Shown here: one piece after another, positions 21,783 through 57,922 of the stretch | Position numbering within the stretch: the stretch's first letter is position 1 | Layout of the letters: every line of letters starts with the position of its first letter | NCBI GenBank assembly: GCA_036403435.1 | Contig: DASWQY010000157.1 | Span: 3,186 to 67,185 of the forward strand | Length of the DNA: 64,000 nucleotides | Direction of reading: 5' to 3' | DNA from: Pyrinomonadaceae bacterium | Lineage (GTDB): Bacteria > Acidobacteriota > Blastocatellia > Pyrinomonadales > Pyrinomonadaceae | Position numbers and translations under genes: made by a program | Notes under the pieces: model-generated | What the model was told of the DNA's origin: nothing | Seen by the model: the letters and a program-made list of their open reading frames with translations, nothing else | The model's database searches: none

Positions 21783-21868
21783 AGTGGTCAGTAGTCAGTG
21801 GTCGGTGGTCAGTTAAAGACAAAAGCGGTTTCTTTTATCTGACCACCGACCACTGACTACTGACCACT
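21783..21868. repeat. Long hairpin element, GTGGTCA heptamer family
   Basis: AGTGGTCAGTAGTCAGTGGTCGGTGGTCAG (21783-21812) pairs with CTGACCACCGACCACTGACTACTGACCACT (21839-21868). The stem is 30 bp and perfect, with a 26-nt loop. The right arm overlaps the last codons and stop of the cupin gene. Confidence 0.85.
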
Positions 21869-22210
21869 CCTCCGGTAGTCGTCCTCCAGCCTGACGATGT
21901 CGTCTTCGCCGAGGTAGTCGCCGAGCTGGACTTCGATGAGGGCCAGCGGCTCGGTCGCCGAATTGCCCAGGCGGTGATTCGTCTCGGGTGGAATGTGTAT
22001 GTGCTCGCCGGCCTTGAGTCGTAACTCGCGCTCTCCGCAGACTACGTCGGCCGTGCCCTGCACGACGACCCAGTGCTCGCCGCGGCGCGAGTGTCGCTGT
22101 AGACTCAGGCGCGCGCCTGGTTTGACTTCGAGCCTCTTGACCTTGTAGCCCGCGCCCTCTTCCAATACTTCGTAACGCCCCCACGGCCTCTCGTCTGTTT
22201 CACCTCTCAT
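21857..22210 (-). CDS. Cupin-domain protein (mannose-6-phosphate isomerase type II C-terminal-like)
   Basis: The start is taken at the ATG at 22210-22208 (MRGETDERPWGRYEVL...). Cupin motifs are GARLSLQRHSRRGEHWVVVQG and GEHIHIPPETNHRLGN. Confidence 0.75.
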   Translation of the reverse strand: MRGETDERPWGRYEVLEEGAGYKVKRLEVKPGARLSLQRHSRRGEHWVVVQGTADVVCGERELRLKAGEHIHIPPETNHRLGNSATEPLALIEVQLGDYLGEDDIVRLEDDYRRSGQ

Positions 22211-22274
22211 CGCTTCCCGCCTCCCCAATTCGGTGTCGAGTTAACGAGCATAATGAAGACACGCCGCCCGGCGC

Positions 22275-22320
22275 AAGAAAAAGGAACGGCGCGCTTCGTT
22301 GAAGCATTCGCCGTTCCTTT
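22275..22320 (-). terminator. Intrinsic terminator of the (GGSK)n mini-gene
   Basis: On the minus strand, AAAGGAACGGCG-17 nt-CGCCGTTCCTTT is followed by TTCTTGC. With the stem's own T residues this gives CCTTTTTCTT. The stem is 12 bp. Confidence 0.55.
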
Positions 22321-22396
22321 AAGAGTGACCCTAATGGGCCAGTCGTGTTGCGTGCGCCTATGGAAGGTTGTTGCTGTTGTTCGTTGTCCGCTAGGA

Positions 22397-22543
22397 CTAC
22401 TTGCGGCCCTTCGCGCCCTTCGCGCCCTTTGAGCCCTTCGAGCCGCCCTTCGAGCCGCCCTTCGAGCCGCCTTTCGAGCCGCCCTTTGAGCCGCCCTTCG
22501 ATCCACCCTTTGAACCGCCCTTACCACCTTTCTTAGTTGCCAT
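22397..22543 (-). CDS. 48-aa glycine/lysine/serine repeat mini-protein
   Basis: Not in the track (under 60 aa). The ATG is at 22543-22541, preceded by AAGGAG about 12 nt upstream. The product is MATKKGGK-(GGSK)x7-GSKGAKGAKGRK, with the TAG at 22399-22397. It has its own consensus promoter and terminator. Repeat codons vary at synonymous sites (GGC/GGT/GGA, TCA/TCG, AAG/AAA). Confidence 0.55.
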   Translation of the reverse strand: MATKKGGKGGSKGGSKGGSKGGSKGGSKGGSKGGSKGSKGAKGAKGRK

Positions 22544-22641
22544 AGGTTGTTGCTGCTCCTTTTCAGTTTGAAGTTACGACCACAAGATACTGTGCCGAAT
22601 TTCTTCTTGTGGCCTAGAGTAAGCGGCGCACAACATGTTGG

Positions 22642-22670
22642 TATATAAACTTAAAGCGAATAGATGTCAA
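22642..22670 (-). promoter_or_regulatory. Near-consensus sigma70-type promoter for the mini-gene
   Basis: On the minus strand, TTGACA (22670-22665) is followed by a 17-nt spacer and TATATA (22647-22642). It sits in a conspicuously A/T-rich 340-bp gap with A/T tracts upstream, giving a leader of about 90 nt. Confidence 0.5.
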
Positions 22671-22885
22671 TAACTTTTACCTGCAAATGAAATTTTTTTT
22701 GAACGCGCGAATAAAATTTTTTGAGATGTGAGAGAGCGATCTTGCTGCGCGCGACGCGCGAGCGAACTGCTTCGACGTGTTGGAGAGAAGAATCAAACCT
22801 CCGCAGTGACGCTCTCGATGTCGCGCGCGCGGCCTGAGATGAAAATCAGAGATGACGAGTTAATTGCTTGACGCGAGTGTGCGCG

Positions 22886-23530
22886 TCACCGGAAGTATGG
22901 AGTGAAGACCCAGTGGTCGTGCCGCTCGACGCCGTAGTAGGTGAGGATGGAGCTGCGGCGGCTGCGGCTGGCGACGCCGATGAACGGACCCGAAGAGTCT
23001 TCGGAGTCGTCTTCGCCGCCCGGCGCTTCCTCTTCGATCCCCGTGTCGAGGACGTTGGTCACGACCGGGAGTGGTCCGGCCCTTCCCAGGAAGAGCGCGT
23101 CGTTGGTATTCACGGGCCTGCCGGCGTAGGCCGTCACCTTGGCCTGGAATTCGAGGAAGGCGGGATCAGTTTTTCTGATGAGTTTCCACTTGCCGCTGCT
23201 CGACAGCGGATCGCGCGCGGCGGCGGCGCGCAGGATTTGAATTTTCCTTGTGCCGCGTGGGAGACCTTCGAGTAACTGGTCTATAGAGGTCGGAGGGACT
23301 CCTTTTTCACGCGTGTAAAGACGGATGGCTTCCGCGACCTGCTCGCCGCGCTGGATCGCTTCCTCCTCCAGCTCGCGCTGCGCCATCCGGCGGTAATTCG
23401 GGACGGCCGTGATGAGCAGGAGCGCCATGATCGTCATCATGGCGAGCAGCGAAATGAGCGCGTAGCCGCGCTCGCCGCGCCGCGCCGGGCCAATTCTTTC
23501 AACCGTCGTGTCGTCTCGCTTGGCGCTCAT
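22886..23530 (-). CDS. Pilin/pseudopilin-like protein (prepilin-type N-terminal hydrophobic helix, atypical)
   Basis: 214 aa. A short basic leader is followed by G-YALISLLAMMTIMALLLITAVPNY, which resembles a class III signal, but the usual Glu at +5 is Ser. Its start lies 3 nt after the upstream gene's stop. Confidence 0.5.
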   Translation of the reverse strand: MSAKRDDTTVERIGPARRGERGYALISLLAMMTIMALLLITAVPNYRRMAQRELEEEAIQRGEQVAEAIRLYTREKGVPPTSIDQLLEGLPRGTRKIQILRAAAARDPLSSSGKWKLIRKTDPAFLEFQAKVTAYAGRPVNTNDALFLGRAGPLPVVTNVLDTGIEEEAPGGEDDSEDSSGPFIGVASRSRRSSILTYYGVERHDHWVFTPYFR

Positions 23531-41098: not shown

Positions 41099-41992
41099 AT
41101 GCCTAACCCTCGCCGCCTTCTTCTTCTAGCTCTCGTCGCCTGCGCGCTTCTTCCGTCGAGTGTCGCGGCACAGGCGAGGCTGCGCGTGGCCGTGCTGGAT
41201 TTCGGCGGGACGGAGACGGGCTTGCGCGCGGCGCAGAGGCTGACGCGCGCTTTCGCTTCGGGCGAGGGACTGTCGCCGATTGACCCCGAAGAGAGTCGCG
41301 CCGCCGCGCGCGGCGCGGGCTACGGCGGTTCTCTCAACATGACACTCGATGAGGCGCGCGACCTCGGCGGGGCGCTCGGCGCGGACTTCTACGTGACGGG
41401 CGACGCGCAGACCTTGCGCCGCTCGCCTTCTTCCGGCCCGCACTACTTTGAATCCTACGCCTCCGTCTTCGTCGTCAGCTCACGCACGGGCCGCCTGGTC
41501 CTCTGGGACCGCCCGAGCTTCGAGGCGGCGTCGCTCGAGGAGTCGGAAAAACTTTTGCTCGCGGAATTGGACCGGCGGGCCGCGAATTACAGTCAGGCGA
41601 TTGCTCACGCGCGCGAATCGGAGTTGCGTGAGCGCGCTCAGCTGATCGAACGCGCCGCCGCTTCGTCGCCCGCCGTCGCCGACGCGCCCGAGGACGAGGA
41701 GGCTGCCGCGCGCGCGGGCCTGCGCCTGCCGCAGCCCTACCGCCGTCTGCGGCCCGCTTACCCGGAGAGCGCGGCGCGCGCCGAGGCTGAGGCGACCGTG
41801 GACGTTAAAGTGGAGATTGACGCCGAAGGCGAAGTCACAAACGTTGAGGTCGTGCGCTGGGCCGGCTTCGGTCTGGACGAGGCGACCGTTCAGACCGTCC
41901 GGCAGCTTCACTTCACCCCGGCCCGTTTGAACGCCACGCCTGTTCCCCTGCGCTTCCTCCTGCGCTATAATTTCCGCAAACCAGCGAAATGA
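41099..41992 (+). CDS. Secreted protein with C-terminal TonB-like domain
   Basis: 297 aa with signal peptide LLLLALVACALLPSSVAAQA. The C-terminal region reads PAYPESAARAEAEATVDVKVEIDAEGEVTNVEVVR...ATVQTVRQLHFTPARLNATPV (TonB_C-like). Confidence 0.7.
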   Translation: MPNPRRLLLLALVACALLPSSVAAQARLRVAVLDFGGTETGLRAAQRLTRAFASGEGLSPIDPEESRAAARGAGYGGSLNMTLDEARDLGGALGADFYVTGDAQTLRRSPSSGPHYFESYASVFVVSSRTGRLVLWDRPSFEAASLEESEKLLLAELDRRAANYSQAIAHARESELRERAQLIERAAASSPAVADAPEDEEAAARAGLRLPQPYRRLRPAYPESAARAEAEATVDVKVEIDAEGEVTNVEVVRWAGFGLDEATVQTVRQLHFTPARLNATPVPLRFLLRYNFRKPAK

Positions 41993-43311
41993 ATGCAAAA
42001 TTAAAAATTAAAAATGCAAAGGTGAGGACGAGAAGCGCGCCCGTCTTCTTCTTCCTTTTTGCATTTTTAATTTTTAATTTTGCATTCTTACTCTCAGGAG
42101 AGACGAAGAGCAGCTCAACTGATGAAGACCGTCTCGCCGTCTTCGACGACGTGTGGGAGACGATTCGTGATCGCTACTACGATTCGTCGTTCCACGGCGT
42201 TGACTGGGAAGCGGCGCGCGCGAAGTTTCGCCCGCTGGCCGCGCGGGCGCAGACGACGGGTGAGCTTTACACCGTGCTGCGCCGCATGCTCGGCTCCCTG
42301 CGCGACCCGCATACGCGCGTCTTCGCGCCCGACGAGAAGTTCGACTGGCGCAGGCCGCGCTTCATCGGCGTCGGGCTCAGCGTGCGCGAGGTCGGCGGCC
42401 TCCCCGTGGTCGTCTCGGTCGAGCGCGGGAGTGAGGCCGAGCGCGCGGGCCTGCGCGCGGGCGACGTGGTCGCGGCCGTTGACGACGAGCCCGCGCTCGA
42501 ACTTTTCGCGCGCCGCCTCAAAGAGCAGGCCGCCTCGCCCGACACGGCCTCGACGCGCTTTCAGGTGATGGCTAGATTGTTCGAGGGGCCGCAAGGGTCC
42601 ACGGTCGGCGTCCGCTGGGTCGGCGCGGACGGGCGCGAGCGGACCACGCGGCTCAGGCGCGAGTGGCGCGAGCGCGATTCTTCCCTGCGCGTGCGGCGCG
42701 TGCGCGGCGGCGAGATCGGCGTCGTCGAGTTCGACATCTTCACCGAAGAGGTCGCGGGCGCTCTGGTGCGCGCGCTCGACCACGAGTTGCGCGGCGTGCG
42801 CGGCCTGGTCGTTGACCTGCGCTACAACGGCGGGGGCGAGACAGAGGCGATGACCGAGGTCGCGTCGGCCTTCCTGCCGGCGGGCCGCAGCCTCGGGCGC
42901 TTCACAGACCGCCTCGGGCACTTGCAGTTTGAGCCGCACACGCGCGCCGCGCTCCTTTTCGCCCCCGACCGCGTCAAGACTTTCCGCGGCCCCGTCATCA
43001 TCCTCACCTCGGAACGCACGTCGAGCGCGGCTGAAATCTTCGTCGCGGCGTTGAAGGACGCGGGCCGCGCGACCACCATCGGCCAGAGCACCTGCGGCTG
43101 CGTGCTTGCCATCCGACGCCGCCACCTGCTGCCCGACGGCGGCGAGTTGACCGTCAGCGAGATGGACTACCAGACGGCAGCGGGCGCGCGCCTCGAAGGG
43201 GCCGGCCTCGTGCCGGACGAACGGATCGCGCTCGACCGACAGGACCTGCGCGCCCGCCGCGACCGCGCCTTCGAGCGCGCCGTCGAGCGCCTGGAGCCCG
43301 CTCATCCGTAG
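41989..43311 (+). CDS. S41 family peptidase (C-terminal processing/tail-specific type, with PDZ)
   Basis: 440 aa. The ATG at 41989 overlaps the upstream TGA as ATGA; an in-frame GTG at 42022 is an alternative start. Motifs are FDDVWETIRDRYYD, a PDZ-like GDVVAAVDDEP, DLRYNGGGE and LTSERTSSAAEIFVAALKD. Confidence 0.8.
   Translation: MNAKLKIKNAKVRTRSAPVFFFLFAFLIFNFAFLLSGETKSSSTDEDRLAVFDDVWETIRDRYYDSSFHGVDWEAARAKFRPLAARAQTTGELYTVLRRMLGSLRDPHTRVFAPDEKFDWRRPRFIGVGLSVREVGGLPVVVSVERGSEAERAGLRAGDVVAAVDDEPALELFARRLKEQAASPDTASTRFQVMARLFEGPQGSTVGVRWVGADGRERTTRLRREWRERDSSLRVRRVRGGEIGVVEFDIFTEEVAGALVRALDHELRGVRGLVVDLRYNGGGETEAMTEVASAFLPAGRSLGRFTDRLGHLQFEPHTRAALLFAPDRVKTFRGPVIILTSERTSSAAEIFVAALKDAGRATTIGQSTCGCVLAIRRRHLLPDGGELTVSEMDYQTAAGARLEGAGLVPDERIALDRQDLRARRDRAFERAVERLEPAHP
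41991..42087. repeat. A/T-rich long hairpin element, AAATGCAAAA family
   Basis: GAATGCAAAATTAAAAATTAAAAATGCAAA (41991-42020) pairs with TTTGCATTTTTAATTTTTAATTTTGCATTC (42058-42087). About 29-30 bp are perfect. It is related to 63623-63718. It lies inside the 5' end of the S41 ORF. Confidence 0.85.
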
Positions 43312-57256: not shown

Positions 57257-57286
57257 CTTGACAAAGAGGGACTCAACATTTATCAT
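57257..57286 (+). promoter_or_regulatory. Consensus sigma70-type promoter of the heat-shock block, overlapped by a HAIR-like (HspR operator-like) sequence
   Basis: TTGACA (57258-57263), a 17-nt spacer, then TATCAT (57281-57286). CTTGACA-AAGAGGG-ACTCAAC (57257-57277) compares with the HAIR consensus CTTGAGT-N7-ACTCAAG at 11/14 positions with correct spacing. Confidence 0.5.
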
Positions 57287-57382: not shown

Positions 57383-57922
57383 ATGAGCATCATTCGTTAC
57401 GACCCATTCCGCGACCTACGCAGTCTTCAGGACGAAGTCAACCGTCTGTTTTCGACCAACTTGTCCCGCGTCTTCGGTGACGAGGGCATTGCCCGCGGTG
57501 CCTGGAACCCGAACGTGGACATCTACGAGAACAAGGACCAGATCGTCATAGAGGCCGAGCTGCCCGGCATGAACCGCGAGGACTTCGACCTCTCGTTCGA
57601 GAACAACGTGATTACGCTTCGCGGCGAGCGGCGCTTCGAGAAGAAGGACGAGACGGACAACTACCACCGCGTCGAACGCTCCTACGGCTCTTTCACGCGC
57701 TCGTTCACGCTGCCGCCGACCGTCTCCGGCGAAGGCACCACGGCCGAGTACCGCAACGGCGTCCTGCGTATCACGCTCCCCAAACGCGAAGAGGTCAAGG
57801 CCCGCCGCATAGAGATTGCCGGCGAAGGCGCTGAGGCCAAGACCTCGCGCACCATCGAGGCTCAGGCCGAAACGTCCGGCGGCGAAAAGTCTGACAAGAC
57901 GATGACGGCGTCCGGCAAGTAA
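57383..57922 (+). CDS. Small heat-shock protein, Hsp20/alpha-crystallin family
   Basis: 179 aa. AAGGAAAGGAG lies upstream. The alpha-crystallin domain reads WNPNVDIYENKDQIVIEAELPGMNREDFDL...GVLRITLPKRE. Confidence 0.9.
   Translation: MSIIRYDPFRDLRSLQDEVNRLFSTNLSRVFGDEGIARGAWNPNVDIYENKDQIVIEAELPGMNREDFDLSFENNVITLRGERRFEKKDETDNYHRVERSYGSFTRSFTLPPTVSGEGTTAEYRNGVLRITLPKREEVKARRIEIAGEGAEAKTSRTIEAQAETSGGEKSDKTMTASGK

Follow-up and report, generated by a model that had tools for sequence, protein, structure and literature searches.

A conserved lysine-rich mini-protein gene with conserved untranslated regions in the Pyrinomonadaceae

We have analyzed a 64,000-nt stretch of contig DASWQY010000157.1 from a Pyrinomonadaceae bacterium (the window, to which all coordinates refer unless another record is named), and in particular a very small gene on its minus strand, hereafter the mini-gene. 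Its product is MATKKGGK(GGSK)7GSKGAKGAKGRK, 48 amino acids (aa) that comprise, by hand count, 20 glycines, 14 lysines, one arginine, eight serines and three alanines. The original prediction, made from the letters of the window, had described exactly this open reading frame (ORF) and translation, together with a TTGACA-17-TATATA promoter, an AAGGAG Shine-Dalgarno (SD) sequence, a gap far richer in A/T than its surroundings and a terminator made of a 12-bp hairpin and a T-tract. All of these features are present (Table 1); the promoter is kept in relatives and the terminator stem covaries. Its view of a stand-alone, extremely basic and disordered small protein is also supported, since the frame is intact in 249 of 251 related loci. 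Comparison of these loci suggests that selection in this family acts on a physicochemical specification, including the number of positive charges.

To recover relatives, the flanking 214-aa pilin-like gene was used as bait and retrieved metagenome-assembled genomes (MAGs) of Pyrinomonadaceae/Acidobacteriota. Among the loci with downstream sequence, a mini-ORF beginning with MATKK stood at the same place in all seven evaluable Pyrinomonadaceae loci; three distant loci obtained through the flanking gene had no mini-ORF. As protein searches proved blind to the family, we used three DNA patterns. The leader-hairpin pattern matched 23 genomes, the SD-plus-start pattern 55, and the leader-only pattern at least 119 genomes as well as at least 120 soil metagenome contigs. 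Overall, the locus was found in at least 150 species-level Pyrinomonadaceae/Blastocatellia genomes, with one match per genome. Among the matches listed, the named records were MAGs of Pyrinomonadaceae, Blastocatellia or Acidobacteriota, with the exception of a few that bear generic labels and of one Chloracidobacterium sp.; no hit record was labelled as an isolate. Retrieval based on TrmL returned close relatives only, and the range described here for the mini-gene is the Pyrinomonadaceae/Blastocatellia. The gene order was the same in 55 out of 55 loci checked: pilus cluster, mini-gene, cupin gene (in some), trmL and typA. Judging from these comparisons, the mini-gene appears to be vertically inherited, monocistronic and kept in every Pyrinomonadaceae genome examined.

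We then asked what is conserved in the coding sequence (CDS), using 251 complete ORFs (153 from genomes and 98 from metagenomes). Depending on the lineage, the repeats are of the GGSK, GSK, GTK, GGAKK, AAKK or S-rich type, with units of 9, 12 or 15 nt that are always in frame, and the frame stays open in all but two loci despite the changing type and number of repeats. Those two are L093, an aberrant contig end, and L014, which has an in-frame TAG. In the latter (L014:6472-6690) TAG replaces AAG at codon 23, and 42 further in-frame GGSK-type codons and a normal stop follow; possible reasons are an error of the assembly, recent pseudogenization and read-through. Across 652 pairs of the same length and at most 15% divergence, we counted 739, 1012 and 3856 differences at codon positions 1, 2 and 3, respectively (69% at position 3), and 3286 synonymous versus 1542 non-synonymous codon changes. 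The reading frame is thus almost certainly a real protein-coding gene. The original prediction had argued for selection on the peptide and had named loss of the frame in relatives as one observation that would speak against it; the frames are kept and the differences concentrate at third positions. It had further taken the synonymous variation among the repeat codons as a sign that there had been no recent slippage, and this part holds only to some extent. Synonymous differences do occur among the GGSK units of the window, and the last three units are identical (GGC-GGC-TCG-AAG). Besides, a sister contig from the same population (L287, Ga0372937_0000011 of the Joint Genome Institute, JGI) has eight GGSK units versus seven, the rest of the aligned ~430 nt being identical. 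This 52-aa allele (L287:1712-1870), which differs by a single in-frame 12-nt indel, was called as a gene by JGI, without a Pfam hit. The GGSK copy number is therefore polymorphic within one population, and the extra in-frame unit together with the three identical units indicates that slippage is still active, alongside selection.

Regarding the protein itself, what remains constant is not the repeat. The product begins with MATKK in 245 and ends with KKR in 210 of the 251 ORFs. Lysine accounts for 38-43% of the residues across the family and G, A, S and T for the remainder, with 19-26% glycine and 0.4% proline; acidic residues are missing from all ORFs bar one aberrant contig end, and the only hydrophobic residues are Met1 and alanine. 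The median member has 32-34 aa and ~45% lysine, many being of the GGAKK/AAKK type, and the median fraction of lysine plus arginine (K+R) is 0.44-0.47. Length ranges from 22 to 72 aa with a coefficient of variation (CV) of 0.24, while the K+R count has a CV of 0.13 and a mode of 15, reached by 60 of 134 unique sequences. Charge density drops with length: it is 0.50 in the shortest proteins and 0.31 in the longest ones, and the derived slope is ~0.14 charges per residue, compared with a mean density of 0.40. The window protein carries exactly +15 in 48 aa and a typical member, such as MATKKGGKKAAKKGGAKKGAKKGGTKKAAKKR, +15 in 32 aa. According to these comparisons, selection seems to keep the MATKK start, the complete lack of residues that are acidic or hydrophobic, basic residues at intervals of one to four positions and a total of about +15. 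Beyond the termini, no particular sequence or repeat appears to be under selection. The original prediction had described the product as a (GGSK)7 mini-protein; this repeat is not the conserved feature, and the window version, expanded and diluted, looks like the solution of one lineage.

The predicted promoter of the mini-gene matches the sigma-70 consensus at 10 out of 12 positions, with a 17-nt spacer, and no other perfect TTGACA-N17-TATA site exists in the 64 kb. Allowing up to one mismatch, the window contains two such sites, versus 0.21 expected. The second one, with one mismatch, lies at 57258-57284 (+) in another A/T-rich trough, and the ORF found ~100 nt downstream of it (57383-57922, +) looks like an Hsp20/alpha-crystallin small heat-shock gene. 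A generic promoter scanner skipped the mini-gene promoter because its rule requires T as the final base of the -10 element. In the loci retrieved with patterns that exclude the promoter, TTGACA was present in 240 of 249, followed by a 17-nt spacer in 239 of these 240, and the -10 element read TATATA in 209 cases, TATAAA in 16 and TATAAG in 14. In the loci compared, it is placed 5-7 nt before the ATGTTGTGCGC block with which the leader opens and which is common to every retrieved locus. The tract above the -35 element is still A/T-rich in the orthologues, with runs of A or T, and AAGTT[A/G]TTGACA is conserved; the tract may act as an UP element. It belongs to an A/T island, the 342-bp gap at 22544-22885, whose G+C content (GC) is 0.468 compared to 0.649 in the whole window. 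Only 0.12% of the 342-nt windows have a GC as low, and the lowest-GC 200-nt window of the entire 64 kb (GC 0.37) starts at 22528. As for the translation signals, GGAG is found in all loci, with an SD spacer of 8-13 nt that measures 12 nt in 165 of 251; this is also the spacing in the window and exceeds the classical optimum. The initial codons, ATG GCA ACT AAG AAA, are A/T-rich and nearly invariant, synonymous sites included, which would fit with selection for an open initiation region.

The leader shows a median identity to the window of 77% across 152 genomes, about a quarter of its positions having been fixed by the search pattern. In order to contextualize this value, we took the neighbouring genes typA, trmL and the 214-aa one, whose fourfold-degenerate sites have identities of 0.47-0.52, and the spacer further upstream, with 0.585. 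Promoter, leader and a block in the 3' untranslated region (3'UTR) are far better conserved than neutral sites. Within the leader, the core arms of a hairpin, CCACAAG and CTTGTGG, are present in 55 of 55 genomes retrieved by a pattern that lacks the arms. The outer pairs can form in 47-49 of 53 distinct leaders, including changes from G-U to A-U (seven) and to G-C (two), so that they are maintained through one-sided changes, and the loop has 17 nt in 51 of the 53. The fold of the leader is no more stable than that of shuffled sequences (minimum free energy z = -0.31). We also compared the 5' end of the leader with the region just past the SD: the predicted duplex has a mean of -9.3 kcal/mol versus -6.4 for shuffled sequences, and in 91% of 87 variants it is more stable than the mean of the shuffles. 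Sequestration of the SD by the leader 5' end is suggestive only. An upstream ORF in the leader (MLCAAYSRPQEEIRHSILWS, possibly leaderless) was considered and rejected, as it has 5-34 codons or runs on and displays no codon-position bias. A search of 21800-23400 against Rfam 15 at E ≤10 gave only two chance-level matches (E 3.8 and 5.7), both outside the transcript, and there was no match at gathering score in the whole window.

Downstream of the stop codon, the conserved 3'UTR block takes the nearly invariant form AACCTTCC-N-GGCGCAC. In 66 diverse orthologues its GCGC is invariant and the AAC-TT and GGCGCAC columns are more than 90% conserved. GGCGCAC is the reverse complement of GTGCGCC in the leader (22631-22625). 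Pairing between the two ends of the transcript (GUGCGCC/GGCGCAC) was not established, as the seventh pair varies without compensation; by our own estimate, ~0.4 such 7-mer complements are expected by chance between two untranslated regions (UTRs) of this size. The same repeats flank the ORF in inverted orientation, and an invertible element was rejected, given that ORF and promoter have identical orientation in every locus. The block is followed by a small hairpin whose stem varies by lineage yet remains self-complementary (GGCC/GGCC, GCCC/GGGC, ACCCC/GGGGU, AGAGTC/GACTCT) and which is absent in two loci (L012 and L058). Finally, the predicted intrinsic terminator consists of a 12-bp outer stem (AAAGGAACGGCG/CGCCGTTCCTTT), an inner GCUUC/GAAGC stem and a U-tract, with pairing that is kept in relatives. 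The 136-nt 3' region folds with -51.2 kcal/mol (z = -4.2), and in the RNAalifold consensus of the 66 sequences five of the eight terminator stem pairs show compensatory double changes. The generic scanner missed this terminator because its loop exceeds 8 nt.

Table 1. Coordinates of the mini-gene and its associated features in the window
Feature	Position	Strand	Remarks
UP-element-like A/T-rich tract	22671..22723	(-)	directly upstream of the -35 element; contains the conserved AAGTTA abutting TTGACA
Sigma-70-type promoter, TTGACA-17-TATATA	22642..22670	(-)	read from the sequence
-35 element, TTGACA	22670-22665	(-)	followed by the 17-nt spacer
-10 element, TATATA	22647-22642	(-)	
5' leader	22544..22636	(-)	~93 nt; predicted transcription start at or near A 22636, 6 nt past the -10 element
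Leader hairpin, GGCCACAAGA / UCUUGUGGUC	22578..22614	(-)	17-nt loop; predicted in every orthologue fold
Shine-Dalgarno sequence, AAGGAG	22556..22561	(-)	12 nt upstream of ATG
Mini-gene CDS	22397..22543	(-)	ATG start, 48 codons plus TAG; net charge +15
12-nt tandem array encoding GGSK	22433..22522	(-)	7.5 copies, 88% matches
9-nt array encoding G(S/A)K	22406-22444	(-)	adjoins the 12-nt GGSK array
3'UTR block, AACCTTCCATAGGCGCAC	22352..22369	(-)	single-stranded; conserved
Small 3'UTR hairpin, GACUGGCC-CAUU-AGGGUCAC	22323..22344	(-)	from fold and alignments
Intrinsic terminator	22275..22320	(-)	12-bp outer stem, inner stem, U-tract

We also looked at the surroundings of the mini-gene. Upstream, the 214-aa gene (22886-23530, -) encodes a protein whose hydrophobic N-terminus resembles that of prepilins (GYALISLLAMMTIMALLL) and which has a patch of acidic low-complexity sequence (EEEAPGGEDDSEDSS); the gene is the last of a pilM/N/O-like cluster, and no Pfam hit is recorded for it. 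Downstream, a cupin gene (MannoseP_isomer/Cupin_2; 21857-22228, -) separates the mini-gene from trmL in part of the family only, and in relatives without it the mini-gene directly adjoins trmL. The U-tract of the terminator is immediately followed by a pair resembling -35 and -10 elements, TTGCGC...TATGCT (22245-22279, -), which is conserved in the relatives with the cupin gene (CTTGC...TTCGTTATGCTC). It is probably a separate promoter for cupin, trmL and typA that overlaps the terminator of the mini-gene. One locus carries a tandem duplication with two consecutive MATKK mini-genes (L055:318-617): the first copy has the full promoter and leader, the second only its own SD, ~60 nt past the first stop, and a shared conserved 3'UTR follows the second. 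Frame +1 of the mini-gene is occupied by an Arg/Ala-rich alternative ORF of 106 aa (22207-22527, -) which extends across repeat, 3'UTR and terminator. The only reason for this open frame is that the repeat has no stops in it (in 223 of 224 relatives), and a gene finder could wrongly call an ORF of this kind. Elsewhere in the window, a long, A/T-rich and near-perfect inverted repeat (GCAAAATTAAAAATTAAAAATGCAAAGG...CCTTTTTGCATTTTTAATTTTTAATTTTGC) lies between two genes at 41990-42090, in the second-lowest GC trough (0.415), and resembles a bidirectional terminator.

The original prediction could not place the protein in a family, and our searches agree: we found no membership in Pfam, NCBIfam, PADLOC, PDB or Rfam. 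With the window protein, hmmscan against Pfam-A at E ≤10 returned no families, and PADLOC at E ≤10 none either, also with a typical orthologue. A word-indexed phmmer search produced 4511 candidates, none of them at E ≤0.1, and an exhaustive one over 1.84 billion representatives gave two borderline matches (E ~1e-3), both to unrelated low-complexity proteins. Exact look-ups of 20 family members, namely the window protein and 19 relatives, in a collection of 15 billion proteins were all negative. The 52-aa allele called by JGI was not found there either, so absence from this collection cannot be read as never having been called. Against PDB, the window protein gave compositional matches only (E 0.1-1), the weak similarities at E 0.1-0.3 being to a ribosome-bound protein of the Stm1/HABP4 type and to the glycine-arginine-rich (GAR) tail of fibrillarin. 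No ribosomal protein was matched in Pfam or NCBIfam, nor in PDB for an AAKK-type orthologue. A ribosomally synthesized and post-translationally modified peptide (RiPP) precursor or a secreted antimicrobial peptide was likewise rejected, there being no signal or hydrophobic segment; as for a RiPP, no genes for modification enzymes are conserved next to it, the neighbours being pilus genes, cupin, trmL and typA.

Several known systems resemble the mini-protein without being related to it in sequence. The closest in look are the lysine-rich tails of AlgP and PhaF (KPAA, Pseudomonas), of mycobacterial Ku and HupB (PAKKA) and of HBHA, which are also of low complexity and disordered, with close-set lysines between small residues and an evolutionarily variable number of repeats; the AAKK-type orthologues look very similar to them. 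DNA binding is documented for the KPAA repeats of AlgP, a protein that is also located at polyphosphate granules (PMC9239181); the PAKKA tails of mycobacterial Ku modulate DNA binding (PMC3553676), and lysine-rich HBHA acts as a nucleoid-associated protein (PMC10665949). Trypsin would leave the mini-protein in fragments of at most four residues, and under-detection of this kind has been noted for AlgP (PMC9239181). However, the tails of the AlgP, Ku and HBHA type are extensions of folded domains, the complete proteins having from a hundred or more up to several hundred residues, and AlgP carries +55, whereas here the whole protein is ‘tail’, with 22-72 aa and about +15. The architecture of AlgP and PhaF, a folded N-terminal domain with a long K-P-A-A tail, is not found, as 48 low-complexity residues leave no room for a fold. 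Besides, proline is nearly absent, and G/S takes the place of A/P in many lineages, that of the window among them. With Pfam and NCBIfam, we detected no relationship at the level of sequence families to the AlgP, PhaF, Ku, HupB or HBHA tails.

The only families that AAKK-type orthologues touch are the lysine/alanine-rich, nucleoid-condensing chlamydial Hc1/Hc2 (HC2, PF07382) and Burkholderia H1-like proteins (hist_H1_lk_Burk, NF038053). The window protein matched neither, and one AAKK-type orthologue scored 11.2 bits against a cut-off of 40 for HC2 and 9.8 against 80 for NF038053 (E 0.4-0.9), purely compositional touches far below threshold to profiles ~195 positions long. The original prediction had seen a loose resemblance to the KGG proteins YciG and GsiB, which are also small and hydrophilic with repeats containing glycine and lysine. 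KGG repeats of YciG and GsiB are ~20 aa long and contain acidic residues, unlike those of this family, and the KGG profile of Pfam matched neither the window protein nor any of five orthologues, so we reject this resemblance. Composition does put the window protein in the class of hydrophilins, defined by more than 6% glycine and very high hydrophilicity: it has 42% glycine and 31% K+R, and membership in this purely compositional class does not indicate a mechanism. Finally, because of composition and the buffered charge count, an analogy can be drawn with protamines, sperm nuclear basic proteins and polyamines, small polycations that tolerate sequence change and whose key parameter is the number of charges. 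Unlike the mini-protein, protamines and polyamines are eukaryotic and arginine-based or non-peptidic, and there is no common ancestry.

How might such a protein work? The near-consensus sigma-70 promoter and the A/T-rich tract above it would give an abundant mRNA, and high expression is likewise suggested by the open start region. The conserved ~93-nt leader, with its invariant hairpin and a 5' end that can pair with the SD-proximal region, and the 3'UTR block would set translation or mRNA stability; it is the conservation of the UTRs that points to such post-transcriptional control. The product is incapable of forming a hydrophobic core. As a polycation it would bind nucleoid DNA, rRNA/mRNA or polyphosphate (polyP) electrostatically, and condense, neutralise or protect them, acting as a free-standing histone-H1 tail, as a protamine-like protein or as a ‘macro-polyamine’ counter-ion. 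Composition and the characterised lysine-rich tails argue for polyanion binding, and a buffered number of charges fits a counter-ion or condensing role. Since G/S-rich and A-rich versions are interchangeable, helix formation on DNA cannot be a requirement. We consider it reasonably probable that this disordered polycationic microprotein binds polyanions in a non-specific, electrostatic manner; the evidence, which comes from sequences, does not choose among nucleoid, ribosome/RNA and polyP as its target. In function it would be like a histone-H1-type lysine-rich tail, being a member of no curated family; what is new here is a stand-alone, ~30-aa, charge-buffered version with its own conserved regulatory RNA. 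The complete picture, of a universal and abundant Pyrinomonadaceae microprotein selected for its number of charges (~+15), serving as counter-ion for nucleoid, ribosomes or polyphosphate and governed by two new RNA elements (the invariant-hairpin leader and the 3'UTR block, the latter possibly a 3'UTR-derived small RNA (sRNA) or a 5'-3' mRNA clamp), is one that we put forward tentatively.

Several observations weigh against this picture. The 12-nt distance between SD and ATG is unlike that of a maximally translated gene. The metagenome matches all lie on contigs of at least 1 kb, so no transcript-sized evidence comes from them. The G/S-rich variants are unable to form the DNA-bound helices proposed for AKKA/KPAA tails, and if they bind, it must be purely electrostatically. 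The clustering of charge at +15 is a statistic that ignores shared ancestry. On the RNA side, the UTRs are more conserved than the CDS, and part of the function may be RNA-based. The 53 distinct leaders show no double compensatory change in the hairpin, which, together with its unexceptional stability, makes a sequence-level constraint (e.g. a protein or RNA binding site) likelier than a purely structural one. Besides, the pairing of the leader 5' end with the SD region is missing in some lineages, and its median empirical p is 0.115.

One could argue that the product is instead a small basic protein of the ribosome (a lineage-specific ribosomal protein, a hibernation or an assembly factor) whose leader is autoregulated as in ribosomal-protein operons. 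We regard this as unlikely, although it is the most serious rival. A tiny, very basic, single-copy protein present in every genome of the family examined, with a strong conserved promoter, recalls bL34, bL36, bS22, bTHX and eL41 in size, basicity and expected high expression with conserved leaders, and a leader kept in sequence and not just in pairing is what a protein-binding operator would look like. The gene always lies just upstream of trmL and of typA/BipA, which encodes a ribosome-binding GTPase, and its only similarities in PDB, weak and compositional, include the ribosome-bound Stm1/HABP4 type and the fibrillarin GAR tail. However, small ribosomal proteins have conserved sequence and length and fill defined rRNA pockets, and ribosomal proteins are not known to tolerate a 3-fold change in length or the replacement of their repeat type; here length varies 3.3-fold, the repeat type changes freely, and no ribosomal family or ribosome chain is matched. 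Given that the mini-gene has its own terminator and that the order of the neighbours is conserved family-wide, the adjacency to trmL and typA carries little weight. A different proposal would make RNAs the main products, a cis-regulatory leader and a 3'UTR-derived sRNA, with the peptide secondary in a dual-function transcript. Besides the conservation of leader and 3'UTR block over the CDS, the 3'UTR is built like an Hfq-type sRNA, from a single-stranded block, a hairpin, an A-rich linker and a terminator, with hairpin and terminator covarying; its CCUUCC block is anti-SD-like and its GGCGCAC is complementary to the leader GUGCGCC. Such a transcript is plausible and compatible with a functional peptide. 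As the main function we find it doubtful: the ORF is intact with a clear codon-position bias, start codon, SD and first five codons are invariant or nearly so, composition and charge of the peptide are constrained, the 5'-3' pairing lacks compensatory change and may be due to chance, and no Rfam family is matched.

A hydrophilin, late embryogenesis abundant (LEA)-like or KGG-type protectant, shielding macromolecules in desiccation, osmotic or cold stress and not binding polyanions specifically, would account for the extreme hydrophilicity and the glycine content (42% in the window protein, 19-26% in the family) and for the soil origin of the MAGs and metagenome contigs with matches; moreover, the one further near-consensus promoter of the window is that of the Hsp20-like gene. 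This seems improbable to us, given the lack of any KGG or other Pfam match at E ≤10, the poor fit of the AAKK majority, with its high K+R fraction and no acidic residue, and a promoter of the housekeeping-type consensus with no obvious stress-sigma promoter. A short ORF with an abundance of one amino acid, then two hairpins and a terminator, all of it directly upstream of genes on the same strand, also brings to mind a lysine-codon-rich leader peptide that attenuates read-through into cupin, trmL and typA. We rejected this model, for which there is very little room, on distances and on the lack of an anti-terminator: the stop lies ~30 nt before the conserved block and at least 52 nt before the first hairpin, distances at which a ribosome that terminates there could not remodel them, and no alternative anti-terminator pairing was found. 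In addition, none of the genes downstream has to do with lysine metabolism, the terminator is followed by a conserved -35/-10-like element, and conserved termini and a buffered charge are atypical of leader peptides. As for a chance ORF in a slippage-prone simple repeat, the repeat is polymorphic and other frames are also free of stops across it; more than 250 loci share frame, start, composition and synteny, which effectively refutes it, and we can hardly conceive of it.

The polycationic microprotein that we favour is an example of a conserved bacterial family that is invisible to profile and word-based protein searches, and that came to light only by way of its conserved untranslated regions. 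The blocks in leader and 3'UTR, for which Rfam has no match, are candidates for new RNA motifs. The family is also a natural experiment that may tell which property of a disordered polycation selection ‘sees’, as repeats are swapped and length changes 3-fold around a charge of ~+15, so that hypotheses on the number of charges in the organisation of nucleoid, RNA or polyphosphate become directly testable. Pyrinomonadaceae were frequent among the retrieved soil MAGs and metagenome contigs and, to our knowledge, few of them have been cultured. A gene that is kept universally, and whose promoter probably ranks with the strongest of the genome, would be a good entry point to their cell biology.

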